From Verrucomicrobiaceae bacterium (GTDB taxonomy: Bacteria; Verrucomicrobiota; Verrucomicrobiia; Verrucomicrobiales; Verrucomicrobiaceae), in NCBI GenBank assembly GCA_027486585.1, contig JAIXOU010000119.1:17061-81060 (forward strand): 64,000 bases of DNA, in the 5' to 3' direction. The translations under genes and the position numbers were made by a program. Shown piece by piece: positions 8,194-26,855 of this stretch (the stretch's first letter is position 1; each line of letters begins with the position of its first letter). Under the pieces are notes generated by a model. The model did no database searches and was not told the DNA's origin. It was given only the letters and a program-made list of their open reading frames with translations.

Positions 8194-9257
8194 GGTTTCG
8201 CGGGAACGGACGCAACGGTCTGGCGAAGAAAGGCGATTAGTTTCTTCAAACTCTCATTCGCTTCGCCAGGCTGGGTGCCAGTCGGGACTTTGGTCGAATC
8301 GCCGAGTTCAAAGGTGCCAGCGGGCAGGTTGAAGAAATACCACGCAGGCTCGAACTGAATGAGACGGCAGTTTTTGTCTAGGGCACTCTGCGTCCAGGCG
8401 ATGATCTCTTCGGGCTTGGTGTCCATGTAGGTGAAGTTGTGAAGCCAACTTTGGTTTGAGAGGCCGTAGCCTGCGGCTCCGTTTTGGGGGAAGGGCTCGA
8501 CGGCGGTGTGCCAGGTGCTGAGGCGGGGGATGGAGGCTTCGTTGGGCTCGTTGTTGTTGTAGGTCACGGTGACGACGCCGAGATGTTGGCGGAGTAGCGC
8601 TTTCACTTGCTCGGTGTAACGCGGCATCTCCTTGTCCCACGGTGAAAAGGGCATCCAGCCAAAGTCGGCCCACTGCACAAACATGGCGTGCTCTTTGGCG
8701 AAACGGATGAAGCTCTCCGCGAGATCGGGGCGGAAGAAGGTGTCGGCAGGCAGCTTGTCGCCAGGGCGTTTTAGCTCTGGATTCGTCGTCTTCATCGATC
8801 GGATGCCGTAGTCCTGACCAAAGATCTCCATGAATCGCAAACCAATGAGCCACGCGCCATACGTTTCTTTAAATACCGCCAGTTGCTCCACGGAGATGGA
8901 TTGCCCATGACTCGAATCAAACGGCGCATTCGCCGGACCATTTGCGCCGAGTGTGAAGCTGTCTGAAGAATACACATCGAAAACAAATGGCATCTTCTGC
9001 GCCACCAGCGCGTCCAGCATGAGCTTCAAGTGATCCATGTCTTTGATCATCGGATTCAGCAACACACACACCTGATACTTGGCCCGCAGCGGCTCCAGCG
9101 CGGTCACCATTCGAGTCATTGCGGCCACATTCCCAGTCGCAACGATGCCATTGCCGAAACCTTGGTCGATGGAGAAGAGTAGGCGGGCTTTCGGCTCTGC
9201 GGCCAGTGATTGGCCAACGAGAAGTGCCAGGAGTGCGAATGCGAGGAAGAGCTTCAT
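8190..9257 (-). CDS. Secreted hypothetical protein (possible TIM-barrel hydrolase)
   Basis: Signal peptide MKLFLAFALLALLVGQSLA; alternating strand and helix pattern (LLFSID, VCVLLN, FVFDVY, IGLRFME, FVQWAD, LIQFEP); ATGA overlap with the next gene. Confidence 0.6.
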   Translation of the reverse strand: MKLFLAFALLALLVGQSLAAEPKARLLFSIDQGFGNGIVATGNVAAMTRMVTALEPLRAKYQVCVLLNPMIKDMDHLKLMLDALVAQKMPFVFDVYSSDSFTLGANGPANAPFDSSHGQSISVEQLAVFKETYGAWLIGLRFMEIFGQDYGIRSMKTTNPELKRPGDKLPADTFFRPDLAESFIRFAKEHAMFVQWADFGWMPFSPWDKEMPRYTEQVKALLRQHLGVVTVTYNNNEPNEASIPRLSTWHTAVEPFPQNGAAGYGLSNQSWLHNFTYMDTKPEEIIAWTQSALDKNCRLIQFEPAWYFFNLPAGTFELGDSTKVPTGTQPGEANESLKKLIAFLRQTVASVPAKP

Positions 9258-13540: not shown

Positions 13541-13620
13541 GGCATCAGATCACGGTGATGTGAGGATAAAGTCACCTAACGTCGAGTGATAATTAAAAAG
13601 AAGAAGCAATCAATTTATTG

Positions 13621-14370
13621 ATGAAACCTTCTGAGTGTACTGAGCACCGTGATGACCTATCTAGACGCGGCTGGATCAAGCGTTTCCTGTTTGGATCTGC
13701 TGTCTCACCTTCTTGCGCAGCGCTGTTTTTGTCAGAGGTGACCGAGGCTGCGCAAAGCGGGCCAGGTGTGTTAAAGTTAAACGTGGCTACCTATCCTGCC
13801 TTGGCAACGGTAGGCGGCTCGGTGCAACTGAACTTCAGCCCGATCTATAAACCGCTAACAATCAACCGAGCCACTAGCACAGTGTTCGTGACACTGGATT
13901 CTGTCTGCACGCATGCAGGCTGCACGGTGAACAAGTTTCTGTCGGCAAACGGTTCTATGAGATGCCCTTGTCATGGCTCGCGTTACGATGTCTATGGCCG
14001 GGTTATCGGTGGACCTGCAGATGCAGATCTAGTTTCTTACAAGACGGCTTTTTCACCAAGTTCAAACATCATCACAGTGGAGGTGCCTTCACTGGGATTG
14101 AATGTGAATTCCGTCAGCTTCTATTCACGCTCGGGAAATACCACGCGACTAAAACTGACGTTTCAGGTCACTGCCTTTAGCACTTATGAGGTGCATTACC
14201 AGAGTAGTCTAACGGGCGCCTATACCGTCGTGCCCTTTGCGATGACTCCGACCGGCGCAGCAACGGAGACGTCGCTAGAGCATTTCGATGACGGCGAGCG
14301 CACGGTGTATGTGGATGCGACGGGAAATCAGGGTTTCTTTGTCGTGGCTGTGGTGCTGTCAGAAGTGTGA
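13621..14370 (+). CDS. Tat-exported Rieske [2Fe-2S] protein with a C-terminal beta-rich extension
   Basis: SRRGWIKRF Tat-like motif; CTHAGC and CPCHGSRY Rieske boxes; about 80 extra C-terminal residues. Confidence 0.85.
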   Translation: MKPSECTEHRDDLSRRGWIKRFLFGSAVSPSCAALFLSEVTEAAQSGPGVLKLNVATYPALATVGGSVQLNFSPIYKPLTINRATSTVFVTLDSVCTHAGCTVNKFLSANGSMRCPCHGSRYDVYGRVIGGPADADLVSYKTAFSPSSNIITVEVPSLGLNVNSVSFYSRSGNTTRLKLTFQVTAFSTYEVHYQSSLTGAYTVVPFAMTPTGAATETSLEHFDDGERTVYVDATGNQGFFVVAVVLSEV

Positions 14371-14379
14371 AGGAGTCTT

Positions 14380-15078
14380 TCAATCAACTAAGCTGCCACT
14401 GCGGATTTGGGCGATCTCCTGAGCATCGAAACCGAGCTGTTGAAGTTGTGACTCGCTCACCTTATTTTGCCGAACTTGGTGTGCATAAAGAAGCATTACA
14501 GTGGCGCGGCGCGTGGCCTCATCTGGGATCGACTCCGCCCAGACGAGTGCCGTTTCTGCGTGGCCTGCTGAGGCAATATTTTCACTGATGGATCTGAGAC
14601 TATTACCGAGTTCATCAAAGCGTGCCGTTTGGTTGAGCCACTCCGTCGCTTGGTCTGGAGCTATGCTAAACCAGAGAACAATTTGTGCATTCAAGAGCGC
14701 GGCATTTTCTGGCGTAGAAGGCGTGCCTTCCAGCTCAGAGATGCGGCTAGCGACTTCGGCTGCGGTGATGCCTGCACCTGTGCTGACAGGGATGATGGCT
14801 GGTTTTGGCAGACGTGGACTTGCTGGCTCCGGCACGACGGCGCTGAGCCAGAAGGGCGGTTCATCTTTGGGTGCCCGTAGCAGGCGGTCGCGCAGAGCTA
14901 CACTCGCGGATGCTGGTACATGGTTGACTGCGGCAGCTGCGGAGTCGGTCGCCGCGTTAACATGAGCATGACTGATCTCAGGCGCACCGATGCGGTAGCC
15001 AATCCAGCTAGCGCAGAAGATCACGCCGATGAGTGCAGCCAACTTTGTCGGTTTGGATTGCAGCAGCGCAGCATTCAT
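14380..15078 (-). CDS. Hypothetical membrane-anchored protein, last gene of the SPFH-ATPase operon
   Basis: N-terminal TM helix, Ala/Pro-rich linker, helical C-terminus (APDQATEWLNQ, TALVWAESIPDE); ATGA overlap with the ATPase. Confidence 0.65.
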   Translation of the reverse strand: MNAALLQSKPTKLAALIGVIFCASWIGYRIGAPEISHAHVNAATDSAAAAVNHVPASASVALRDRLLRAPKDEPPFWLSAVVPEPASPRLPKPAIIPVSTGAGITAAEVASRISELEGTPSTPENAALLNAQIVLWFSIAPDQATEWLNQTARFDELGNSLRSISENIASAGHAETALVWAESIPDEATRRATVMLLYAHQVRQNKVSESQLQQLGFDAQEIAQIRSGSLVD

Positions 15079-17006
15079 GCGACAGCAGTAGGCACGGTGA
15101 CGACGCTTTCTATCGCCGTATTTTCAGGTGAAGCGGCGGCTACTTCCATACCATCAAAGCGCAGCAGGCGGGCGCTATTGAAGATCACGAAGAAGGCGCT
15201 GAACTCGTGCAGGAAGGCGGCAAGCACTGGATTGACTAGACCAAGGCTGGAGGCCGTGACAGCGGCGATGATGAAGATGAAGCCACACAGCAGGTTTTGA
15301 TTGATGATGCCAACCGTGCGTGCAGAAAGCACCAGCAGATCAGCCAGACGGCGCAGGTCGCCAGACATGAGGGCGACGTCGGAAGTGTGGACGGTGATGT
15401 CGTTGCCCAGTGCCCCCATGGCGACGCCGAGATCGCCTTCCTTCAGCGCAGGCGCATCATTGAGACCATCGCCCACGACGAGCACGCGGTGGCCTTGCTG
15501 CTTGAGCAGGCGGATACGGGCGACTTTGTCCTCAGGCAGGCACTCGGCTTGGAAGTCGGTGATGCCGATGCTGCTGGCGATGTGCTGCGCGACTTCAGCG
15601 CGATCTCCAGTGAGCATGATGAAGTCGTTGATACCAAGACTGCGCAAGCGAGTGAGTGTTTCAGCAGCTTCATCACGGATACGGTCAGCGAGTAAAAATG
15701 TCGCGGTGTGTCGGCCATTCACACTCAGCAGGACAAGGCTGTGACGCGTCAGCAGTGAGGGATCGAGTGCGATCTCCATGCCATGACCACGTAGCCATGA
15801 CAGGCGGCCAATTTGGATTTTTTTTCCTTCGACTATGCCTTCAAGTCCGAGGCCGGGATGCTCGATGAGGTCGGTGACTTCAGGCAGCGCCAATGATTCG
15901 CCTGCATGAGCGATGGCGCGTGCCACGGGATGATTAGAGCTGCTTTCCAATGCGGCGGCGAGCCGTAGCGCGTCGTCTTTACTGATGGCAGCATCATGCA
16001 ACAGCACGTCTTCCAGATCGAGCCTGCCGACTGTGAGCGTGCCGGTTTTATCAAAGACGACGGTATCGACGAGGCGAGCTGATTCCAGATGGCGCACGCT
16101 TTTGATCAGCAGCCCCATCCGAGAACCTGCGGCGATGGCAGAGACCATGGCGCTGGGGCTGGCGAGCACGAAGGCGCAGGGAATGCTAACCACAAGCACG
16201 GCGATGGCTCGATCAATATCCTGAGTGAAGAAGAACACACTCACGGCGATGAGCATGATGAGCGGCGTGTAGTAGCGTGCGTAATCCTCTGCCATGCTGA
16301 TGATGGGAGCCTCGCTGGACTTCGCCTCCTCAATGATGCTCTGCACGCGCCCCATGACGGTGTCAGTGCCAGCGCCCGTGACGCGCGCGGTGAGAGCGCC
16401 GTTGAGATTGAGCGTGCCGGCAAAGATGTCGCTGTTCGTGCTGGCCTCCACGGGTGCTGATTCGCCCGTGATGCGGCTTTGATCCATCATGGCGCTGCCT
16501 GTGAGGATAACCGCATCCGCAGGCACGACCTCACCGGGACGCAGCACGATAATGTCGCCGAGATGCAGCTCAGCAGCTTCGACTTCCTCTTCCAACTCAC
16601 CGCGACGGCGGCGGGCGATGAGGCGATTTAGCTGACGTAGTTTGGATAGCGCCAGCTCAACACCGACGGTGGTTCTCTCCTCCATCATCTGACCAAAAAC
16701 GAGGATCACAGCGACGATTCCGCCGGTGAGGTAGCGCCCAGTGGCAAGGCATGCTGCCAGTGCGAGCACGACGTATTGATCCATATAAAACTGCGTGGCC
16801 GCGAAGCCACTGGCGCGGATGGCTTTGATCACGCCAAGCACGATGGGCAGCGCGACGATGAGCACGCCAGCTAGCGCGAGCAATGCTGGTAAAGTGGGCT
16901 GCTCTGGCCGTAGCCATGTCGTCAGAGCAGATGCTGTGAGCAGCGCTGTAGCAGCAAAGAGAAGCCGCAGTCGGCTCAGCGTTTGGCGGTCGAGATCGGC
17001 GTGCAT
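15075..17006 (-). CDS. P1B-type heavy-metal-translocating P-type ATPase with atypical IPC motif
   Basis: TGES, DKTGTLT, SNHP, GDGLNDAPAL; TM motif VVSIPCAFVLASP; C-terminal LHEFS...FNSARLL; no N-terminal metal-binding domain. Confidence 0.92.
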   Translation of the reverse strand: MHADLDRQTLSRLRLLFAATALLTASALTTWLRPEQPTLPALLALAGVLIVALPIVLGVIKAIRASGFAATQFYMDQYVVLALAACLATGRYLTGGIVAVILVFGQMMEERTTVGVELALSKLRQLNRLIARRRRGELEEEVEAAELHLGDIIVLRPGEVVPADAVILTGSAMMDQSRITGESAPVEASTNSDIFAGTLNLNGALTARVTGAGTDTVMGRVQSIIEEAKSSEAPIISMAEDYARYYTPLIMLIAVSVFFFTQDIDRAIAVLVVSIPCAFVLASPSAMVSAIAAGSRMGLLIKSVRHLESARLVDTVVFDKTGTLTVGRLDLEDVLLHDAAISKDDALRLAAALESSSNHPVARAIAHAGESLALPEVTDLIEHPGLGLEGIVEGKKIQIGRLSWLRGHGMEIALDPSLLTRHSLVLLSVNGRHTATFLLADRIRDEAAETLTRLRSLGINDFIMLTGDRAEVAQHIASSIGITDFQAECLPEDKVARIRLLKQQGHRVLVVGDGLNDAPALKEGDLGVAMGALGNDITVHTSDVALMSGDLRRLADLLVLSARTVGIINQNLLCGFIFIIAAVTASSLGLVNPVLAAFLHEFSAFFVIFNSARLLRFDGMEVAAASPENTAIESVVTVPTAVA

Positions 17007-18109
17007 CAGCGGGAAAATTGGGGTGCAGGCTCGACCAAGATGGAGGGCGCGGTAGTGGACATGGGCACCAGCGTGCGGGAGTAGATCTGACTCATGGCAG
17101 CATCCAGAGACTCGCGCAGGATGCGCTGCGCGACGAGTTCTGGCTGGAGCTGGTAGTTCGCCAAGAGGGAGGTGAAGGCGCTGGCTTCACCGCGTGCGAC
17201 GGCGATGAGATCGGCACTGTAACCCTGTGCCCGCTGCAGGATGGCGGCGGCGTCACCTTGATACTGGGTGACGGTCTCGCCCTGATATTGCAGAGAGTTT
17301 TCTGCCAAAGTTTTGGCAAACTGACGGGCATTGACCACGTCTTCAAAAGCCGCAAGCACTTGCTTCGGTGGAGATAGTTCCACGATGTCGATACTGCTGA
17401 TGCGGATGCCAAGGTGCAAGTGGGTGACAGATTCTTGCAGGCTGGTTGCAGCTGCCTTTGCCACATCGCTGCGGGCTTCTGTTAGGCTGGCGTCGATCTT
17501 CCGCGCTGCGAGCTGGACAGCGAGACTGCGGCGCGTGAGGCGTGTGAGGAGTGTGCGGATGTCTGCACCGCCAGAAGTATAGGCAAAAGGTTCGGCGATG
17601 CGGTAGCGCAGAGTAAAGCGGCCCTGAATGACGTTGTAGTCGGCTGTTAGCGTGTAGCCATGTCTCACGGGATCAAGTGTCATGTTTTCATACATTGGAA
17701 ACTCTGCGCCTTCAATTTCCCTGGTGGCGAGTTCAGCGCTGAGCTGCGCGTCTGTCTTTTCGATGGGTTTGTCGGGATCGCCGATCTTGGTGCCGATCAG
17801 CGCCCAATCATTGAGTGGCAGGCTGAGATCACGACCCGTATCGAATCGTAGCACTTCATCAAACGGTGCCGGTAATCCGATGAGTAGGCCTGGGCCATGC
17901 AACTGTGTTTGCAGCCGACCCAGCCTGCGCACCAGCGCACTTTCCTGCGGCTGGATGCTGTGGATTCCGGAGATGGCATAGAGCGCCAGTAAGACGGCAA
18001 AAACCCAGCGCGCATGAGCGGTGAGCTGCTTGAGAAAAAGCAGCAATGCCTCGACGAGGTGGCCGTCGTTGCGCAGGGGTGTTTGAGCTGGTTTCATTGC
18101 AGGCATCAC
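17006..18109 (-). CDS. SPFH/band-7 protein, HflK-like
   Basis: TM anchor, then LVRRLG..GPGLLIGLPAPFD, LTADYNVI, YRIAEP, IVELSPPKQVLAAFEDV and a coiled-coil tail. Confidence 0.85.
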   Translation of the reverse strand: MMPAMKPAQTPLRNDGHLVEALLLFLKQLTAHARWVFAVLLALYAISGIHSIQPQESALVRRLGRLQTQLHGPGLLIGLPAPFDEVLRFDTGRDLSLPLNDWALIGTKIGDPDKPIEKTDAQLSAELATREIEGAEFPMYENMTLDPVRHGYTLTADYNVIQGRFTLRYRIAEPFAYTSGGADIRTLLTRLTRRSLAVQLAARKIDASLTEARSDVAKAAATSLQESVTHLHLGIRISSIDIVELSPPKQVLAAFEDVVNARQFAKTLAENSLQYQGETVTQYQGDAAAILQRAQGYSADLIAVARGEASAFTSLLANYQLQPELVAQRILRESLDAAMSQIYSRTLVPMSTTAPSILVEPAPQFSR

Positions 18110-19092
18110 GGATTGCGGTCGATGATGATGGCAGTTGGCGCACTTGGCGCGGACATCTCGATTGGCTTTACGGGATTGCCGTCGCCTTCTTTGGCCTTCA
18201 GCCAGTGAAAGGGGGCTACGCTGGTATCGAGCACGACGGTGGTGTTTTTATCCACGACGGTACGCAGACTTTGAAGCTCACGCAGGAAGCGGTAAAAGGC
18301 GGGATCTTTGCCATGCGCCGTAGCATAGACTGCGGCGGCCTCAGCTTCGGCTTTGCCACGTAGTTCCTCGGCCTCACGTTTGGCGTCGGCGATGAGAAAG
18401 GTGGCTTGCTTATCGGTTTCTGCCTTCATCTCGGCAGCCTTGGCACGCCCTTCAGCGCGGTATTGTGTGGCCTCACGCTTGCGCTCGGATCTCATGCGGC
18501 GGAAGACGGATTCAGTATTGGCCTCGGGTAACTGGATTTGGGTGATGCCAGTGGTGATGAGCTCGATACCGAGCTGCTGGGCTGCATCTGCTGCGGCCAG
18601 AGTGAGTATTTCTTTTTCCAAAGCAGGGATGGAAGCTCCAATACGCTCATCACCGACCAGATCAGCGAAGTCATGGCGGCCAAGCATGGTATTGCGCGCG
18701 CTGGTGATGAGTGCATCAAGTTTTTGTCGAGCAGGTTCAAAGTCGCGCACGGAAGTGTGAAATATCAGCGCCTCCTGCACGCGCCAAGTGAAGAATACGG
18801 GAACGATGACATTGCGCTGATCACGTGTGAGCGTCTCACTGAGGCGGATCTCGGCGTGTTGCAGGCGCTTGTCGATACGCACGATGTGCTCCAGCGGCAC
18901 GGGCAGTCGGAAGTGTAGGCCGGGTTGCTCGATGGCGCGCATGGGTTTACCGAAACGCATCACCAAAACGTGCTCGGCTTCATTGACCAAAAAGCAGCAG
19001 GCGAAAGCGAGGACGAGCAGCGCAGCTGCGGCGATGGAGACGAGGCGTAGGGTGACGGTGCGACTAATGCTGACAGGGGAGATTTCACTCAT
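18106..19092 (-). CDS. SPFH/band-7 protein, HflC-like
   Basis: LVMRFGKP..PGLHFRLP, LTRDQRNVIV..FTWRV, VFRRMRSERKREA, DPAFYRFLRELQS: HflC hallmarks. Confidence 0.88.
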   Translation of the reverse strand: MSEISPVSISRTVTLRLVSIAAAALLVLAFACCFLVNEAEHVLVMRFGKPMRAIEQPGLHFRLPVPLEHIVRIDKRLQHAEIRLSETLTRDQRNVIVPVFFTWRVQEALIFHTSVRDFEPARQKLDALITSARNTMLGRHDFADLVGDERIGASIPALEKEILTLAAADAAQQLGIELITTGITQIQLPEANTESVFRRMRSERKREATQYRAEGRAKAAEMKAETDKQATFLIADAKREAEELRGKAEAEAAAVYATAHGKDPAFYRFLRELQSLRTVVDKNTTVVLDTSVAPFHWLKAKEGDGNPVKPIEMSAPSAPTAIIIDRNP

Positions 19093-20909
19093 GGCTTTGG
19101 CATCGGGCTGGGGTTTTGAAGGAGGTTGTCGGTGTCAGGAGGGGCCATGTTCGGTGCGGGGATTTCACCTTTGCCCATGCGCACATAGCCTTCGATTTCC
19201 TGGTCAAAGGCTTCGAGAGATTTACCTGGTTTTGGGATGAGTGACTGGAGTGCAGGCGCGGCGCTGCTGGTGAAGTCTGGGTTCAGCACTTTTCTCAGAT
19301 CAAGCTGCGCTGGTAGGCGTGTCTGGAGGCTGTCATCGACAATGGCTTTCTTCGTTCCTCCGAGTGCCTCATCCAGGACGCGAAAGCCTTCGCGCCATTG
19401 ATACAGTGTCGGCTGCAAGGCCCAGGCGGCGCGGCGGCTTTCGAAGCGCGCCACTTGACCATTGACTTGGGCTTGGCGGTTCTGTGCCACGGACTCCGCA
19501 CCTGTCAGTGCGGCACCGGCATAGGCTTTGGCATTGTAGAGACTGTCTGTGTTGTTTGATTCGGCTTCATAGATGGCAGCTTCTTTATCCTCCATGGCAG
19601 AAATCACTTCTTGGAAGGTCTGAGCGACACTGACAGGCGGGTGGATGTCACGCAACAGCACATCTGTGATAGTGATGCCTGAGTTCAGGGAATCGAGTGC
19701 TGTCTGCAAGCGCTGACGAAACAGCGCACGCATTTCTTCGCGTGCCTCAGTCATGATTTGCTCTGCCTTGAGCGGTAATGCTAGGGCAAGTAGAACGCGC
19801 TGGGCTTCCTGTGCTAGCAGTGCCTCAGGCTGTGCGAGGGTGCGCAGATAGCGCACAGGATCACTGATGCGAAAAAGAATGGGCACGCTGATGGAAAGGA
19901 AGTCATCGCCACCGCCGACGAGGGACTGCTGCTCGCCTTCATAATGCGCACGCTCCCAGAGGATGGGCTGGCCAGGATCGGTGCGGAAGCCGAGCACGAC
20001 CTCACGAACCAGACTGGTATTCACGACTTCCACAGTGCCCAGTGGCCATGGCAAAGAAAGGTGTAAACCCGGCGCGAGTGGCTGGGACTGCCAGATACCT
20101 AAATGCTGGCGCACTCCATGGCTGCTCGCTGGCACTTCATGCAGGCAGGAATTAGCCCAGACACAGAAAGAAATCGTCGCCAACAATGACGGTAAGCTGT
20201 CGCGCACGATGGGCCACATCCACATGTCAGCGAGTTTCAGTGAGATATGCTCTTCGATCTCAGCAGTATTCTTTTCAGGCACGCAGGCACGCCACTCGCC
20301 ACGGAGCCAGGGATAAAAGAAAAACACTCCTGGTTGCGGCATCTGTGACCAGTGTCGGCGAGGCGTGTAAAGCTGCGCCGTGAGTCGGAAGAAAGTGTCG
20401 GTAGTAAGTAGCAGACAGAGACCAGCTAGCGCTGTCGCTAACCAACCATGCAGAGGCAACTGCAAATATAGTGCGGCGAGTAGCACACCGGCGCTGATAA
20501 AATGAATCAACACGACTCCATGCAACAGACAACGGGAGATGGGCGGCCATGCTTTTTTCCCAGTTGCTGCTAGGATGCCTGCAAAGGACAGTGCGGCTCC
20601 GATAAGCAGTCCGCCGATGGGCCAAGCAGGAACGAGAAGATCAGCAGGCTGCCATCCGTTACCTGTGATGATCCATGCGGCCAAACTGATGGCGGCGAGT
20701 AAGACGCCCGTGGCAGGTCGGGCAATGAGCAGCCCTGCGCCGAGCATCACCAGAGCTACTAGCGGCAGTAACCAGAAAGTTTTCCAAACCAAGATCAAGA
20801 CCAGTAAACCCACGGCTTCAATGCCCAACAAAGCAGGCGGTAGGGAGGGAGAGTTTGCGGGTTTTGACATGAAAGCCAGAGAATGAAAGTCCCGGCCACG
20901 CGCTCGCAT
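19089..20909 (-). CDS. Polytopic membrane domain fused to an HflK-like SPFH domain
   Basis: About 6-7 N-terminal TM helices, then PGLHLSLPWPLG, FRISDP, LLRDIHPPVSVAQTFQEV and a coiled coil. True start may be MSKPANS at 20870. Confidence 0.8.
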   Translation of the reverse strand: MRARGRDFHSLAFMSKPANSPSLPPALLGIEAVGLLVLILVWKTFWLLPLVALVMLGAGLLIARPATGVLLAAISLAAWIITGNGWQPADLLVPAWPIGGLLIGAALSFAGILAATGKKAWPPISRCLLHGVVLIHFISAGVLLAALYLQLPLHGWLATALAGLCLLLTTDTFFRLTAQLYTPRRHWSQMPQPGVFFFYPWLRGEWRACVPEKNTAEIEEHISLKLADMWMWPIVRDSLPSLLATISFCVWANSCLHEVPASSHGVRQHLGIWQSQPLAPGLHLSLPWPLGTVEVVNTSLVREVVLGFRTDPGQPILWERAHYEGEQQSLVGGGDDFLSISVPILFRISDPVRYLRTLAQPEALLAQEAQRVLLALALPLKAEQIMTEAREEMRALFRQRLQTALDSLNSGITITDVLLRDIHPPVSVAQTFQEVISAMEDKEAAIYEAESNNTDSLYNAKAYAGAALTGAESVAQNRQAQVNGQVARFESRRAAWALQPTLYQWREGFRVLDEALGGTKKAIVDDSLQTRLPAQLDLRKVLNPDFTSSAAPALQSLIPKPGKSLEAFDQEIEGYVRMGKGEIPAPNMAPPDTDNLLQNPSPMPKP

Positions 20910-20949
20910 GGCCGGGATGAAGGGTGAACTGCTGAGTTGAGGATTAGCC

Positions 20950-22620
20950 TTATGGTTTCGGACGAACGAGCAAGACCTGGCCGTCTTCGGCGAACTCCAG
21001 CAATGCCTGTGCTTTGGTCAGGAAGCCGCCAGATCCGTTGGGTGCATTGGAGCGGTGTGCTGCTGCACCGTATGGATGGGCCTGGATATTGATCAGGAAG
21101 GTACCAGCGCCAAAGATGGCGTCTGTGCTGATGACACCCGAGCTCTCCCAGAGACCTGCGGAATAGGCGCTGGTCAAGTTACCGTCGCGACCAGCCACAT
21201 AGCCGTAGTTGAAGGTGGATTGCAGCTTTGCTGCGTAGGCGTTGTTGCGATTGAGGGTCCACATACCGGCGTTGCGGGCCTTGGCTGTATAGACGGCATT
21301 GGCTGGGGAATTGGTGTCTTCACAAACCACGATGAAATCCTTCGTGACAGCGATGTTGTCGATGCTCACTGGATAGTCTGGGCCAGTAAGGTCACCCTGT
21401 GTGTAGGTGCCAATGGCACCCGTGACTGGAGCGGTTAGGCGACCTGTGCTCGCGCCAGAATAGCTGCCTGCTGGGTAAATAATGGTGTCTGCATTATAGA
21501 CGATGTTCAGCGTGCCATTGGCCAGTGGGTTCACTGGATTCATGGTCAATTCATAGAGACGACCAAGGCGGTTCGGGCCCGAACCACCTGTAGTGGCAAG
21601 GAAAACGCTGCGAGTAGGCTGCGTGGGGTCAAATTCTGCGTCCTCGACACGCACTAGGCCGAAACCACCAACGACGTCTGCCTGAATGGAAAGTTGGGTC
21701 CCAGTGAGATTGGCTGCATTTGGGATCTCGACCCACTTCGTGGCAAGGCTGCCAGAGGTGAAGGTGCCTTCATTGTGCTGGGCTGCGTTTCCGCAGAGGA
21801 CATAGAGCTTACCACCCGTGAGACCATTTTTATCGAGCACGCTATTGGAGCGACGGAGCTTGGTGCCCACATACATATAAGTGTAGGAGACAGGGCTGGC
21901 GCTAGGTGCAGGGCCGTCTTCGGTAAAGATGACGACTGTTTTGTCATCACGACGCGGCTGCACGATAGTGGTCTCGCGGGCTGCACGGCCCATGGCTGGA
22001 ATCGTGTACATTTTGCCATCAGCAACGACCACGACTTGGGAACCATTTGCATTGTAGTTGCCAGTGCCAGACTCCTCGTTGGTGAAGTAGAGCGGGCGAT
22101 CCATGCCGTGCTCACGTCCGGCAAAAGAACCGGAGCAGAAACGGGTGAAGCCAGCGGTATCACCTTCGAGTGGTGGGCGCGTTCCCAGTGTGCCAGCGGC
22201 CTGGGTGTTTTCCAGGAACAGTTCTTTGTGAGCGACCGTACCATTAAGGATAGCGCCAGTGGTGCTATTCATGGAAAAGCGTGAAACGAAGGCACCCTTG
22301 TAGCGTGTCGAACCCGCGAATGGGCGGCTATTGCTAGTGCTATTGATTTCGTGGGCTACGAAAAGAATATTCTCATTCGTCACGCTATCTTTGTAGATGC
22401 CCATGGCATCAGGAATGCCACAGAAGGTGTAGTCAGTGGCTCCCACTGGGCCAGTGCCGGACGTCAGAGGAACACGATCACCCACAGTCACGATCGGGGT
22501 GAACGTGAAGTCTGAGGTCGGGGTGGCGCTGAGGTAGGAAGACTCGGAAGTCAGCACGCCCTGAGCGAAGGCGGATGTCGAGGCGAGCGCAAGGCCGGCC
22601 AGAAGTTTGGAGAAGTGCAT
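20950..22620 (-). CDS. phoX: PhoX-family (DUF839) alkaline phosphatase
   Basis: Ligand-pattern motifs in order: GIPDAMG, VAHE, RFCSG, TNEE, ARE, TED, RVED, IDNI, VCED, WESSG, NIQAH. Sec-type signal, no twin-Arg. Confidence 0.78.
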   Translation of the reverse strand: MHFSKLLAGLALASTSAFAQGVLTSESSYLSATPTSDFTFTPIVTVGDRVPLTSGTGPVGATDYTFCGIPDAMGIYKDSVTNENILFVAHEINSTSNSRPFAGSTRYKGAFVSRFSMNSTTGAILNGTVAHKELFLENTQAAGTLGTRPPLEGDTAGFTRFCSGSFAGREHGMDRPLYFTNEESGTGNYNANGSQVVVVADGKMYTIPAMGRAARETTIVQPRRDDKTVVIFTEDGPAPSASPVSYTYMYVGTKLRRSNSVLDKNGLTGGKLYVLCGNAAQHNEGTFTSGSLATKWVEIPNAANLTGTQLSIQADVVGGFGLVRVEDAEFDPTQPTRSVFLATTGGSGPNRLGRLYELTMNPVNPLANGTLNIVYNADTIIYPAGSYSGASTGRLTAPVTGAIGTYTQGDLTGPDYPVSIDNIAVTKDFIVVCEDTNSPANAVYTAKARNAGMWTLNRNNAYAAKLQSTFNYGYVAGRDGNLTSAYSAGLWESSGVISTDAIFGAGTFLINIQAHPYGAAAHRSNAPNGSGGFLTKAQALLEFAEDGQVLLVRPKP

Positions 22621-22668
22621 TTTGAGGATGGGTATTTGGGTTGACTGCGGGTTGAAGGCAGAAAGGGT

Positions 22669-23517
22669 TTAGGCGACGCGGCGGCGGCGGAAGAGGAGGC
22701 CCACAAAGGCCATGCCGACAAGCACTGCGCGTGAAGGCTCTGGGATTGCGGCGATGGAATGGACGCCTACACCCGAACCGAAATTGCCTACTGATGTGGC
22801 AGCGCCTGTCAGCGCGTCGATCGAGTACAGGGAAGAGGTGGCTCCATCTGTGGAGAGCGTGCCCCAGAGATTACCATTGGCATCCACTCCGAGACCGCCA
22901 AAGGAAACAATATCCAGGCCCAGTCCACCGACCGTGAAGAGTTCACTGAAATTCGGGTCGATGCTTCTCACCAGTGTATTCAGATTGGCATCAATAAAAT
23001 AGGTGCTACCGAAATCTGGGTCGATACCAAGCGCGAAGATTACTGGTGCGGTGCCGAAGTTTGCGTCACCAACACCATAGACTAAATTGCCATTGGTTGT
23101 GCGTGTGCCATTGGTGGAAAAGAGGACGTTTTCCCCGACATCACTCGCGAAGAGCATTTTATCAGTGATCGGGTCATAGGCAAAACCAGCGGCAAAACCC
23201 AGAGTGCTGAAAGTGCTGCTGATAAGAGTCGCAGCACCGCCTCTTGTGACGGAATAAAAGTTTGAGTTCGAGTCAATGCCGTAATGGGTGTCTGAGCTGG
23301 CGTGGTAGGTTAGGTTCAGCAGAACAGCGCCTGCATCGTTAGTTATACCGTCACTTGCCTTCAAGCCTGTGATGGCTGTGCTTGTGATGAAGGTAGCTGG
23401 AGCAGTCGTGTCAAAAGACACGAGATTATTGTCGGTGGTGACACCGAAGAAGGTAGCAGCCTGAGAAGAGACTGTGAGTGCCACGCAGGCAGCACTGAGG
23501 AAGAAGGAACGGTTCAT
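22669..23517 (-). CDS. PEP-CTERM-anchored DUF4394-like beta-propeller protein
   Basis: Signal peptide; FFGVTTDNNLVSFDT, GFAYDPITDK, SLYSIDALTGAAT; C-terminal IPEPSRAVLVGMAFVGLLFRRRRVA. Confidence 0.8.
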   Translation of the reverse strand: MNRSFFLSAACVALTVSSQAATFFGVTTDNNLVSFDTTAPATFITSTAITGLKASDGITNDAGAVLLNLTYHASSDTHYGIDSNSNFYSVTRGGAATLISSTFSTLGFAAGFAYDPITDKMLFASDVGENVLFSTNGTRTTNGNLVYGVGDANFGTAPVIFALGIDPDFGSTYFIDANLNTLVRSIDPNFSELFTVGGLGLDIVSFGGLGVDANGNLWGTLSTDGATSSLYSIDALTGAATSVGNFGSGVGVHSIAAIPEPSRAVLVGMAFVGLLFRRRRVA

Positions 23518-23831
23518 GACTTGAGAGCGGGATGGATGGGAGTTAGCAAATCACCAGCAGAAAAATCATTCTGCCGACGATAGCTTTTTAACGTCCTGTC
23601 TAAAGACTTGGCAAAAAGACGAACGAAACAATTTTGCCATGCGTCAAAGATGTCACAAACTTTGAGATAACATCAAACTGACGCGACTCAGGCTTTGCTC
23701 ATCATCAGTGCTCATCACAAAGACTCCGTTGTGATTCATTAGCTCTACTTCGGGGAAAAATATCCCGATGGATCTTTGCGTCGTGGACCTTGGTTTCGTT
23801 ACCGGTTCGGAGAAACTCCGAGTGATTCATT

Positions 23832-26800
23832 TTAGCGACGACGACGGCTCAACAGACCAATCAAACCCAATGCGAAGAGTAGCGCGCGTGTCGGTTCAGG
23901 CACGACTGCTACAGAGATGGTTCCAGCGGTGTAGAATTGGCTCAGATCCCAGCCCAGCAATCCGGTCAGCGTGGGTAGCTCCATTAGCGCGGTGTCAAAG
24001 GTGCCTGTCGGTGCTGTGCCGGCTAGAGTGTTCCAGTCCAATAGCCGCCAACGATCATTGGCTGCAAAGCCTGTCATCGCGCTGGTCACTTTCAATTTAA
24101 CACCGGTGCTGATGTTGAAAAGGCCACCTGTGCGGAAGAGATCGGCTGCGGCAAGATTGCCCGTCTGATCCCCCAGACCTGCGCCTGAAAAAAGATCAAA
24201 CTCCAAGGTGCTGCCACTCTGGAAAAAAGTGGTGATGCTGCCATTGGCAGGGGTGAAGGTCAGGATATTTCCACTCGTGTCACCAGAGGCATTTCCCACA
24301 CTCACTTTGGCTCCGCTGCCGATGGTCACCGTGCCACCTGATGCTGGCTGGATGAAGCCTGTGCCAAGAATCACGCTGCCAGAGTTTGCCTGCACATTGC
24401 CAGTGCTAGTAGCAGAACCCGTGGTGTTGGTGACGACCAACTTACCGCCATTGTTGACGGTGGTAGGACCGTTGTAGGTGTTGGCATTGGCAAGCGTCAC
24501 CGTGGTATCCTCGATCACGAGATCTGAGTTGGCCGATGCGCCTGTGATGACGCTGCCAACTTTAATCGGCTGTGTGCCACTGAAGGTGAGCGTGCTGCCG
24601 TCCTTTGAAATCGGTCCTGTGAGTAGAAGCTCGCCTGAACCGCTGTTCTGAATGGTACCCGTGCTGCCAGTGGTGACGGTGATGCCACGATCCCAGTTCA
24701 CGCCGACACCTGTGTAGCTGAGCCGACCACCTGAGGAAAGGGCGACAGGTGTGGTAGCCTGGCCGAGTGGCTGCGCCACAGTGCTAGCGGCCACTGTAGC
24801 GACGGCGAGCGTGCCACCGGTCACCTTGACGTCCCCAGTGAATGTGTTGGCTCCAGTCAAAGTCGTGGTTCCCGCACCCGTTTGTGTGAGCGATCCTGTG
24901 CCCGAGATCACAGGTGTGACAGTGATGGAATCGCTGCGATTGATGGCCAGCGCTGCGTTGTTCGTGACTGCACTTGTGCTGCCGAGTGTGCCTGTCGTGC
25001 CGCCATTACCGACTTGTAGGGTGCCGCCGCTGATCGTGGTGCCGCCGGAATAGGTGTTGGCCCCCAAAAGGGTCAGGGTGCCAGTGCCCTGTTTTATAAG
25101 CGGACCACTACCAGTGACCTCATTGGTAAGGCTGATGCTGTTTCCATTCGTGTCCAGCGTGCCACCGCCGGAGCCTAGGGTGATGCCTCGGTTGCTGTTG
25201 AAGCTGATGCTGCCGGTTGCCTTCACGCCGCCGCCATCGAGCGTGATCTGATCCGCCGAGAAGCTGCCCGGATTCGTTCCAAAGATGCTCTCTCCGCTAC
25301 CAGCAATAAACCCACCCGTGATGCTGGTCTTACCAGTGTAGGCGTTTGCTTCGCCAAATGTCTGCGTGCCGCTGCCGCTCTTGACCAAGGTGATTGATCC
25401 AGTGATGACGCCGGAGTTTGCGTCTGTGCCATCGCCATAGCTGTAGCTTCCACTGCCGCCGAGAGTCAGCGTAGCCGCCGTGGAGGACGTGACGGTGTTA
25501 TTGGTGGCCGTGGCATTCGTTCCGGTGACGGAGTTCAGTCCGGCGATCTGCTGACTACGTCCGTTGAGGTCTAGAATGCCGAGGTTGGCGCTCGCCGCTT
25601 GTCCCAGGCTGACCGTCGTGGTCGTGGGCAGGCGGTCATTGCCCGTCGTGAGCTGCACCGTGCCGTTGTTGATCGCGGTGTCACCCGTGTAAGTGCTCAC
25701 ACCGCCCAAAGCCAGCGTGCCACCACCCTGTTTGGCCCATGCGCCAATTTCACCGATCTTGTTGGCAATGGCACCGTTATAGCTGAGCACTCCAGCGCCA
25801 GGTGTGCTGATCGAGGTTCCTGAGGCGTCTCCCACGAAAATCTGGCGTCCACCACCGAGCGTGTAGCTGGCGCCACTGAGCGTCGCAAAGCGACCACCAT
25901 CAATAATGATGTCGTTCGCGGCATTGCCGAGGCTGCCATCGGCGGTAAAGCGCACTTCGCCACCGGTGACCGTGATGTCACCCGTGAAAGTGTTGGCGGC
26001 ATTCGTGATGTCAAAACGTCCGTCTGTTCCAGACAGCGCCGCAAAGGTGATCCCACCGCTTCCCGTGTTGCTGATGACACCGGTAAAGCCGTGCGACCCA
26101 TTGTTGCCCTGCATTAGCGTGCGGCTCGCAGCTCCGAGACTCACATTGTTATCGAAAACAAGGTTCGCCGTGCTGCTGGAAAGGCTCACCTCGGTGGCCA
26201 GTGCCCCGAACTGTACATTCCCACCGATGGTGATTCCGTTTGGGAAACGAGTATTGACGAAGGTTCGACTTCCGTTCGCTGCCATCGTCCCGCCATTGAG
26301 GGTCAACGTGTTTGTGCCACCACTGCCCAAACCCGTTGTGCCACGTGCGATGACTGTCCCGGCATTGAGAGTAAAACCCCCAGTGAAATTACCCGCGCCA
26401 GTTCCAAAAACACCGCTGCCGTTTTTGATAAAACCGGTGCCTGCCGCAGTGGACAAGGCGTTTTGATTCAAATCAAACAAGCCGCCAGCCCCGACATCAA
26501 TGGTTCGCACTGCACCTCCCGTGGCATAGGTGCTTCCGATGGATGCAAAGTTCACCGTCACACCACTCGCCACCGTGACATTGCCCACATTTGTCGAAGC
26601 ACCCATGCCTGCAAATGTGTAAGTGCCTGAGGTGAATGAAACAGCGTTGTTCGCAGTGAAGGTGCTGGTATAGGGCGCGACATCTGTGGTGTTGTTCCAT
26701 CGCGCTGCATTCCAGGCAGTCGTGGCGGTGGTAGACGTGTAGGACTGCGCTGATGCCATAGCGCACATCAGAAGAAAGGAGACAAAACCAAAGACATAGA

Positions 26801-26855
26801 TCGCGACCGCGCGAACGAAGACGTTGTTAGTGACGGAGTGGGAAATTGGGGGCAT
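23832..26855 (-). CDS. PEP-CTERM surface protein with autotransporter-associated beta-strand (PATR) repeats
   Basis: About 7 repeats of type LxKxGxGTLxLxGxNTYxGxTxIxxG; C-terminal VVPEPTRALLFALGLIGLLSRRRR; no beta-barrel. Confidence 0.88.
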   Translation of the reverse strand: MPPISHSVTNNVFVRAVAIYVFGFVSFLLMCAMASAQSYTSTTATTAWNAARWNNTTDVAPYTSTFTANNAVSFTSGTYTFAGMGASTNVGNVTVASGVTVNFASIGSTYATGGAVRTIDVGAGGLFDLNQNALSTAAGTGFIKNGSGVFGTGAGNFTGGFTLNAGTVIARGTTGLGSGGTNTLTLNGGTMAANGSRTFVNTRFPNGITIGGNVQFGALATEVSLSSSTANLVFDNNVSLGAASRTLMQGNNGSHGFTGVISNTGSGGITFAALSGTDGRFDITNAANTFTGDITVTGGEVRFTADGSLGNAANDIIIDGGRFATLSGASYTLGGGRQIFVGDASGTSISTPGAGVLSYNGAIANKIGEIGAWAKQGGGTLALGGVSTYTGDTAINNGTVQLTTGNDRLPTTTTVSLGQAASANLGILDLNGRSQQIAGLNSVTGTNATATNNTVTSSTAATLTLGGSGSYSYGDGTDANSGVITGSITLVKSGSGTQTFGEANAYTGKTSITGGFIAGSGESIFGTNPGSFSADQITLDGGGVKATGSISFNSNRGITLGSGGGTLDTNGNSISLTNEVTGSGPLIKQGTGTLTLLGANTYSGGTTISGGTLQVGNGGTTGTLGSTSAVTNNAALAINRSDSITVTPVISGTGSLTQTGAGTTTLTGANTFTGDVKVTGGTLAVATVAASTVAQPLGQATTPVALSSGGRLSYTGVGVNWDRGITVTTGSTGTIQNSGSGELLLTGPISKDGSTLTFSGTQPIKVGSVITGASANSDLVIEDTTVTLANANTYNGPTTVNNGGKLVVTNTTGSATSTGNVQANSGSVILGTGFIQPASGGTVTIGSGAKVSVGNASGDTSGNILTFTPANGSITTFFQSGSTLEFDLFSGAGLGDQTGNLAAADLFRTGGLFNISTGVKLKVTSAMTGFAANDRWRLLDWNTLAGTAPTGTFDTALMELPTLTGLLGWDLSQFYTAGTISVAVVPEPTRALLFALGLIGLLSRRRR

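Follow-up and report, generated by a model that had tools for sequence, protein, structure and literature searches.

Gene content and layout of the locus

We analysed a 64,000-nucleotide stretch of DNA from a Verrucomicrobiaceae bacterium (contig JAIXOU010000119.1, positions 17,061 to 81,060; hereafter the window) and examined a block of seven minus-strand genes within it. The block encodes two predicted exported proteins, three SPFH proteins (genes g1, g2 and g3), a P1B-type metal-transporting ATPase (g4) and a membrane-anchored protein (g5). The two genes upstream of g1 are referred to as the PhoX-like and DUF4394 genes. An initial annotation of this DNA had proposed that the SPFH proteins may form a cage or microdomain around the ATPase and deliver metal to exported phosphatases under phosphorus limitation. 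The features, all on the minus strand, are the following.

23607..23648, minus strand: conserved sequence element upstream of the DUF4394 gene, TTTGACGCATGGCAAAATTGTTTCG...TTTTTGCCAAG, with inverted arms TGGCAAAA / TTTTGCCA
22669..23517, minus strand: DUF4394 protein with a signal peptide and a C-terminal PEP-CTERM sorting tail; first gene of the block
20950..22620, minus strand: PhoX-like protein, 556 aa, a secreted PhoX-fold beta-propeller with a Sec-type signal peptide
20890..20917, minus strand: terminator-like hairpin, 12 bp, between the PhoX-like gene and g1
19089..20870, minus strand: g1, long HflK-like protein (the longest open reading frame would begin at 20909)
18106..19092, minus strand: g2, HflC-like SPFH protein, 328 aa (TIGR01932, hflC)
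17006..18109, minus strand: g3, HflK-like SPFH protein, 367 aa, GTG start (TIGR01933)
15075..17006, minus strand: g4, P1B-type ATPase, 643 aa, 8 transmembrane helices (TIGR01525, TIGR01512)
14380..15078, minus strand: g5, anchored helical-repeat (TPR-like) protein (AlphaFold2 model)

A check of the reading frames in the window placed the five downstream genes at 19089-20909, 18106-19092, 17006-18109, 15075-17006 and 14380-15078. Their junctions read ATGA, GTGA, TGATG and ATGA, corresponding to overlaps of 4, 4, 1 and 4 bases, and the coordinates and 1-4 bp overlaps given in the initial annotation for five coupled minus-strand genes were thus confirmed. The same annotation had g1 starting 40 bp past the stop codon of the upstream gene, and this had to be revised. 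Because the ATG at 20909 falls within the conserved hairpin and most orthologues are ~593 aa long, g1 probably starts at the ATG at 20870, which leaves a gap of 79 nt rather than 40. The reported lack of an ftsH gene in the window was borne out. The sole full FtsH of the 6.5-Mb genome is encoded on another contig (C139), and another, adjacent pair of SPFH genes lies on a further one (C70). Since FtsH and this separate SPFH pair are located elsewhere, the SPFH trio of the window represents an additional paralogous set.

Three SPFH paralogues and a P1B-type pump

All three proteins g1, g2 and g3 contain the Band_7/SPFH domain (PF01145), scoring 49-98 bits against a cut-off of 23.6, with g1 the lowest at 49 bits. 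The g2 protein also scores above the NCBIfam hflC equivalog cut-off (TIGR01932, 170.6 bits versus 134.4), while g3 (131 bits) and g1 (102.6 bits) remain below that for hflK (TIGR01933, 159.4). By these scores g1 and g3 are HflK-like paralogues, not equivalogs. The best matches in the PDB agree with this division, being E. coli HflC (7vhp_G, E 2e-35) for g2 and E. coli HflK for g1 (E 5e-17) and g3 (E 4e-23). An alignment of orthologues divides g1 into ~6 weakly conserved transmembrane helices, a basic cytoplasmic loop, an HflK-type transmembrane helix, the SPFH domain, a coiled coil and a conserved C-terminal tail (DLRKVLNPDF...IPAP...D.DN). The N-terminal six-helix domain found no family match in a Pfam scan. 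Like the HflK and HflC subunits of the E. coli HflK/HflC-FtsH complex (PDB 7vhp, 7wi3, 9cz1), the three proteins combine an N-terminal transmembrane helix with an SPFH domain and a coiled coil, and like them they are encoded by adjacent, translationally coupled genes, g2 being HflC-like and g1 and g3 HflK-like by sequence. The E. coli complex, however, has two paralogues where the window has three, one of them with the extra six-helix domain and the conserved C-terminal tail. Its partner is FtsH, whereas the SPFH genes of the window adjoin a metal pump gene and a further SPFH pair is found elsewhere in the genome. We note that in one Akkermansiaceae metagenome-assembled genome (locus L007, 12753-13546) two small opposite-strand genes of 121 aa and 143 aa lie between the HflC-like and HflK-like genes and break the otherwise tight coupling; by sequence the pair resembles a VapBC-type toxin-antitoxin system.

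The g4 protein was assigned to the P1B-type ATPases with 485.7 bits for TIGR01525 (cut-off 346). It also exceeds the cut-off of the Zn/Cd/Co subfamily model (TIGR01512, 421.8 bits) and falls below that of the copper subfamily model TIGR01511. Its alignment with the P1B-4 pump sCoaT (7qbz) spans the whole protein, helices MA and MB included. The catalytic motifs FDKTGTLT, ITGES and GDGLNDAPAL are intact and invariant in 10 orthologues, as are the membrane motifs FYMDQY (M1), SIPC (M4), NQNLLCGF (M5) and HE(F/L)SAFF (M6), the last of which reads HEFSA in the window. Only ~11 residues precede the first transmembrane helix, and no CxxC, His-rich stretch or N-terminal metal-binding domain is present. 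The predicted membrane site has a Cys in M4, a Cys in M5 and His-Glu in M6, a combination suited to divalent transition metals, for example Zn2+, Co2+ or Fe2+. In a rough pattern search of the 150 nearest representative clusters, 117 carried CPC and 3 carried IPC; as judged from its relatives, the IPC/HEFSA site is uncommon and derived within a CPC/H-N/Q lineage.

The initial annotation had referred to iron-exporting P1B-4 ATPases. The PC in M4, the HE in M6 and the lack of a metal-binding head are P1B-4-like features, and g4 shares the xPC and HE pattern and the missing N-terminal domain with the P1B-4 ATPases sCoaT, CzcP, PfeT and CtpD/CtpJ. The subgroup is, however, defined by SPC in M4 and HEG(S/G)T in M6 (PMC13460109). 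With IPC and HEFSA in these positions, g4 does not satisfy the definition, and we rejected it as a P1B-4 member. The chemistry of its site (Cys, His, Glu) appears similar to that of the P1B-4 site. This likeness is probably convergent, because the nearest relatives of g4 are SPFH-associated CPC/H-N/Q pumps.

Relatives of the pump provided a second type of evidence. Among ~1000-aa relatives of g4, five of the six tested are single-chain fusions of the ATPase with a Band_7 domain. By the Rosetta-stone argument, the fusions therefore suggest that pump and SPFH proteins are in physical contact. A comparable system has been described in the mycobacterial PacL-CtpC/G/V 'effluxosomes', in which P1B ATPases are co-expressed with a dedicated membrane scaffold partner and form metal-efflux platforms. 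The PacL proteins are small, though, the review does not class them with SPFH proteins or flotillins, and a secreted enzyme partner is not described for PacL systems (PMC13460109). As an observation on pump architecture, a 961-aa relative from the representative library (P0482) bears a C-terminal SBP_bac_5 periplasmic solute-binding domain and no SPFH domain, which would be a fitting arrangement for capturing metal in the periplasm.

The SPFH genes could instead belong to FtsH-linked quality control, with additional HflK/HflC paralogues modulating FtsH and the pump a mere substrate or neighbour. Homologues of g1 are named 'protease modulator HflK' at NCBI, g2 passes the hflC equivalog cut-off, and the genome does encode one FtsH. 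Against this, the genome already has its separate adjacent SPFH pair on another contig, g1 and g3 fall short of the hflK equivalog cut-off, the covalent fusions in relatives indicate the pump as the partner, and no ftsH lies near any locus of the window clade or any plasmid cassette described below. We therefore consider this explanation very unlikely.

Conservation and spread of the block

Pump homologues of 39-51% identity were found in 38 of 201 Verrucomicrobiae genomes, representing 27 of 109 genera. A g3-like HflK gene lies directly upstream of the ATPase gene in 28 of 29 loci fetched from other genomes, the exception having no upstream flank. Wider fetches of Verrucomicrobiae loci from other clades returned the order long HflK, HflC, HflK, ATPase. 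The four-gene cassette with the same annotation is also plasmid-borne, in Klebsiella aerogenes (a conjugative plasmid) and in Rhizobium tumorigenes; the plasmid ATPases are 38-39% identical to g4 and have a CPC and H-N site with a His-rich N-terminus. The conserved order in Verrucomicrobiae and on proteobacterial plasmids, taken together with the fusions in five of six relatives, upholds the earlier proposal that the SPFH trio and the ATPase act together. On this comparative evidence they very probably form a physical and functional unit.

In the clade of the window the conserved unit is larger. Thirteen public loci have the order DUF4394, PhoX-like, g1, g2, g3, ATPase, followed at the place of g5 by a small gene of 193-232 aa. 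They are recorded as Verrucomicrobiaceae, Akkermansiaceae, Prosthecobacter dejongeii, Haloferula chungangensis, a Chthoniobacterales metagenome-assembled genome and isolate JB022. The same order recurs despite different flanks (NADH dehydrogenase genes, an RND pump, a TonB receptor, glycosidases, Fur-SufCBD), an arrangement far beyond chance. The PhoX-like gene is adjacent in every window-clade locus with enough flank, and of the 11 loci whose upstream flank is long enough, 10 have the DUF4394 gene ahead of it (L011 lacks it). High-identity pump and PhoX-like genes were found in exactly the same 9 of the 201 genomes of the order, ~4 kb apart, and at least 20 congeneric genomes lack both. Because of this 9/9 co-occurrence and joint absence from congeners, the distribution indicates that the seven-gene block is gained and lost as one accessory unit.

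Other clades gave a different picture of the partner genes. No PhoX-like or DUF4394 gene was present in 20 loci of other clades (0/20), nor did these clades' loci contain a match to g5. In the sister clade (50% identity) the core sits among ZnuA and ABC-3 permease genes, with an Amidase_3 gene directly after the pump (L049 2125-4001 and 9973-10869; L050 13842-14792); the sister-clade pump has the same SIPC/HE site as the window together with a His-rich N-terminal head of ~40 residues. In a 40%-identity clade the core lies beside an ABC ATPase and ABC-2 permeases. Since the core has different neighbours in other clades, none of them a PhoX-like gene, the loci compared indicate that this gene is a lineage-specific partner and not the general purpose of the cassette. 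The tie to PhoX that the initial annotation had put forward consequently held in part: the neighbourhood survey recovered a constant partner within this clade, in the same 9 of 201 genomes, and none in the 20 loci outside it.

The spread of the cassette also bears on whether the pump is an ordinary detoxification system, exporting Zn, Cd or Co, with SPFH proteins that stabilise it and with the PhoX-like and DUF4394 genes as passengers kept by descent. Source annotations name the pump a Cd2+/Zn2+-exporting ATPase, it scores above the TIGR01512 cut-off, its patchy distribution is like that of accessory genes, and the plasmids bearing the cassette come from tailing mud and contaminated soils, one cassette adjoining a Tn3 transposase. 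The 13 loci nevertheless contain no MerR/ArsR-type sensor or other resistance genes beside the block. A passenger role also fits poorly with the finding that pump and PhoX-like gene were gained and lost together each time (9 of 9) despite changing flanks, and the Pseudomonas counterpart (see below) is induced by zinc depletion, not excess. Taking both sides together, we regard simple detoxification as decidedly unlikely.

Relation to the hmtA locus of Pseudomonas aeruginosa

No characterised system of this composition was known to the initial annotation, and this statement did not survive a literature search. Genes with the same parts, PA2439 to PA2434, have been listed in print as a Zur-regulated cluster (PMC4542158, PMC8531726, PMC11761036). 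PA2439 (HflK family), PA2438 (HflC), PA2437 (HflC family), PA2435 (HmtA) and PA2434 (hypothetical) were induced 5.6- to 14-fold in a znuA mutant (PMC4542158, Table 2), and Zur binds the PA2439 promoter (PMC8531726). In zinc-depleted cells HmtA and PA2437-PA2439 were up, significantly so for PA2438 and PA2439 (PMC11761036). The SPFH proteins of this locus have been studied as PaFlo5/6/7 in a 2026 publication that omits the pump and notes a patchy distribution suggestive of horizontal gene transfer (PMC13086221). P-type ATPases go unmentioned in a 2009 survey of prokaryotic SPFH proteins. The hmtA locus (PaFlo5/6/7 with HmtA) is one co-regulated cluster and, like the window, has no ftsH (PMC4542158, PMC11761036), and the Klebsiella and Rhizobium plasmid cassettes share its layout. 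The four-gene arrangement is already known, and the window appears to hold a variant of an hmtA-type cassette. The differences are that a PhoX-like, DUF4394 or g5-type gene is not reported at the hmtA locus, and that the proteobacterial plasmid versions have CPC, H-N and a His-rich N-terminus where the window has IPC and H-E and lacks that head. As far as the comparison of loci indicates, three features set this lineage apart: the IPC/HEFSA site without a His-rich head, the conserved seven-gene block and a structure-conserved hairpin.

These findings bring in the possibility that the pump is a metal importer, as in the model for HmtA, and brings Zn- or Cu-type metal into the cytoplasm when it is scarce. 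The SPFH assembly, g5 and the secreted beta-propellers would then aid metal capture or hand-over; alternatively, the PhoX-like protein would simply belong to the same regulon as a metal-sparing isoenzyme. In favour of import, the matching P. aeruginosa cluster is under Zur control and responds to zinc depletion by induction, with HmtA described there as an importer (PMC4542158, PMC8456098, PMC11761036). In the sister clade the core adjoins ZnuA and ABC-3 uptake genes, and the one pump relative fused to a periplasmic SBP_bac_5 domain points the same way. P1B ATPases are, however, otherwise exporters, and the import claim for HmtA is based on heterologous accumulation data. The window clade, moreover, has neither the His-rich head nor adjoining uptake genes, and no Zur- or Fur-like box was found upstream. 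On this evidence we judge import to be unlikely in the lineage of the window, if somewhat better placed than detoxification.

The exported partners and the anchored protein

The gene upstream of g1 had been called phoX, an identification that the fold and a Pfam score above the cut-off support and that had to be qualified in other respects. The match to Pfam PhoX (PF05787) reaches 34.1 bits against a cut-off of 24 and is confined to profile positions 232-370 of 515. In the PDB, neither the single sequence nor a 41-sequence profile had a match at the sequence level. An AlphaFold2 model built with the 41 homologues (pLDDT 90.7) was searched with Foldseek, and the sole strong match was P. fluorescens PhoX (4a9v/3zwu; E 6e-15, probability 1.0, TM-score 0.59), the next having an E value of 2.5e-5. 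For comparison with canonical sequences, we used annotated PhoX proteins from Deinococcus and Leptospira plasmids, one of which matches the solved PhoX at E 3e-83. Aligned to these with hhalign, the window family gave a probability of 71% and an E value of 3.7e-5, with RHEN matched to R-R-E-T (His to Arg, Glu kept), DRPED to VRVED and SPDN to SIDN. Invariant within the family are a Cys-Ser-Gly (C162-S-G), an Asn-Glu-Glu that follows it (E182-E183) and a Gln-x-His-Pro (Q513-x-H515-P); these resemble the canonical NC(A/S)GG...CEEN and QHP, though hhalign left them unaligned.

Many characterised PhoX proteins have a twin-arginine export signal, and the annotated Deinococcus proteins fit this pattern (TRRSAL / TRRGAI). 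The signal of the window protein is in contrast of the Sec type, MHFSKLLAGLALASTSAFAQG, with no RR. Compared with P. fluorescens PhoX (3zwu/4a9v), the protein keeps the beta-propeller fold, R-x-E-D and D-N, with apparent counterparts of Q-x-H-P and of the Cys followed by E-E, while overall identity is 13-14% and the window protein has a longer loop from Cys to EE, a Sec signal and an Arg for the RHEN His. From sequence and model, it is a remote PhoX-fold relative and not a canonical PhoX, and a putative exoenzyme. Canonical PhoX itself was found nowhere in the window's own genome and matched in only 2 of 61 genomes of the phylum. On the same contig, upstream of the window, a 2135-aa open frame contains another PhoX-like segment (C130:6105-6860, 50.9 bits).

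The DUF4394 protein matches PF14339 with 93 bits and ends in a PEP...RRRR tail; a literature search on DUF4394 gave no result. The g5 protein contains an N-terminal transmembrane helix preceded by basic residues, a disordered Pro-rich linker of ~70 aa and a helical-repeat domain at residues 105-228 (AlphaFold2, pLDDT above 90), which is predicted to be periplasmic. Foldseek returned weak TPR-like matches for this model (E >= 0.38), and Pfam and NCBIfam scans gave no match. Because g5 has no conserved Cys or His, a role as an adaptor is more likely than one as a metallochaperone.

The hairpin and the upstream region

Within 14000-24200, the best terminator-like site is the hairpin at 20890-20917, whose 12-bp stem has 9 GC pairs (folding free energy -25.7 kcal/mol, z -5.2). 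A stem-loop with a T-rich tail lies just 3' of the PhoX-like stop codon in every orthologous locus, and the stem sequences differ. Eight loci were folded and gave hairpins of -22 to -30 kcal/mol with z values of -4.0 to -7.5. Since the T tract after the hairpin of the window is weak (CTTTCATTCT), termination at this site may be partial. The hairpin ends 19 nt before the start codon of g1 in the window, so there is no space for a separate g1 promoter. We read the hairpin as a leaky terminator or 3'-stabiliser that would lower expression of the membrane genes relative to the secreted genes.

Approximately 100 nt upstream of the DUF4394 gene, the ~42-nt element at 23607-23648 is common to the window and loci L001, L002, L003 and L005, as judged by eye, and may be a promoter, an operator or an element of the 5' untranslated region. 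A genome-wide motif search with it returned hits inside coding regions and no informative second site. The upstream regions of the window clade contain no recognisable Fur, Zur or Pho box. By analogy, metal (zinc-type) limitation is more likely than phosphate to govern expression, because the Pseudomonas locus and the ZnuA-linked sister clade sit in a metal-limitation context. At L013, the Chthoniobacterales locus, and at this locus only, a gene for a Fur-family regulator followed by sufC, sufB and sufD (8450-9104) is divergent from the DUF4394 gene, and the shared intergenic region contains a 7-1-7 palindrome, AAGAAT-A-ATTCTAA.

A working model of the block

To the best overall explanation we would give an even chance: a pump held by SPFH proteins works outward and serves the exported proteins inherited with it. 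The two HflK-like proteins and the HflC-like protein most likely form an SPFH hetero-oligomer at the inner membrane, facing the periplasm, and this assembly would touch, hold or regulate the P1B ATPase encoded next to it. The pump would transport a divalent transition metal, most likely outward, since P1B pumps normally work in that direction. In this lineage its output would serve two proteins that would need metal after export, the PhoX-fold enzyme with its Sec signal and the DUF4394 protein with its PEP-CTERM tail, and the TPR-like, anchored g5 would be an adaptor in the periplasm. On a single transcript, the hairpin downstream of the PhoX-like gene would yield far more secreted protein than membrane complex. 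The parts of this model differ in strength. On balance we lean towards a functional link of some kind between the pump and the PhoX-like gene. That the PhoX-like protein is metallated by outward pumping is possible, if doubtful. A more elaborate version can be drawn as a 'metallation chamber', in which an SPFH dome or ring surrounds the IPC/HE pump on the periplasmic side and encloses a zone for metal loading, the long tether of g5 lets it recruit the unfolded PhoX-fold enzyme and the DUF4394 protein to receive their metal there, and the hairpin tunes the stoichiometry of clients to chamber; we consider it quite improbable.

Several observations weigh against the outward-pumping model. Termination at the hairpin could be complete, in which case the PhoX-like and DUF4394 genes would form a unit of their own, and at L013 the gap between the PhoX-like gene and g1 is 237 nt, possibly with room for an internal promoter. 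The PhoX-like gene is absent from the 20 loci of other clades, and more distant PhoX-like homologues (36-41% identity) occur without the pump. In the window protein itself, the invariant His of canonical PhoX is replaced by Arg. The published description of HmtA, by literature gene order the only member studied so far, as an importer implies the opposite direction of transport, and deletion of PaFlo5/6/7 had almost no phenotype in P. aeruginosa (PMC13086221); the likeness of the hmtA locus to the window rests on gene order and annotation only.

For roles of SPFH/HflKC proteins beyond the modulation of FtsH, natural clients are scarce. Three SPFH paralogues tied, and in some relatives fused, to one P1B pump would supply a defined client. 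To this the lineage adds constant exported partners (the PhoX-fold enzyme, the DUF4394 protein and the TPR-like anchor) and a remodelled metal site. These lineage-specific partners give a testable candidate for what the pump serves and turn the scaffold idea into concrete experiments in cultured Verrucomicrobia. The block also bears on whether HmtA-type pumps import or export metal.

Neighbouring genes

Downstream, a gene for a 250-aa Rieske [2Fe-2S] protein (13618-14370, plus strand) converges on g5, a position that is kept in five Verrucomicrobiaceae and Prosthecobacter loci and not in more distant loci. On the other side, the block adjoins a gene for a 1007-aa PATR-repeat protein with a PEP-CTERM tail (23832-26855). 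With the PATR-repeat protein and the DUF4394 protein as neighbours, several exosortase-sorted surface proteins cluster near the block.

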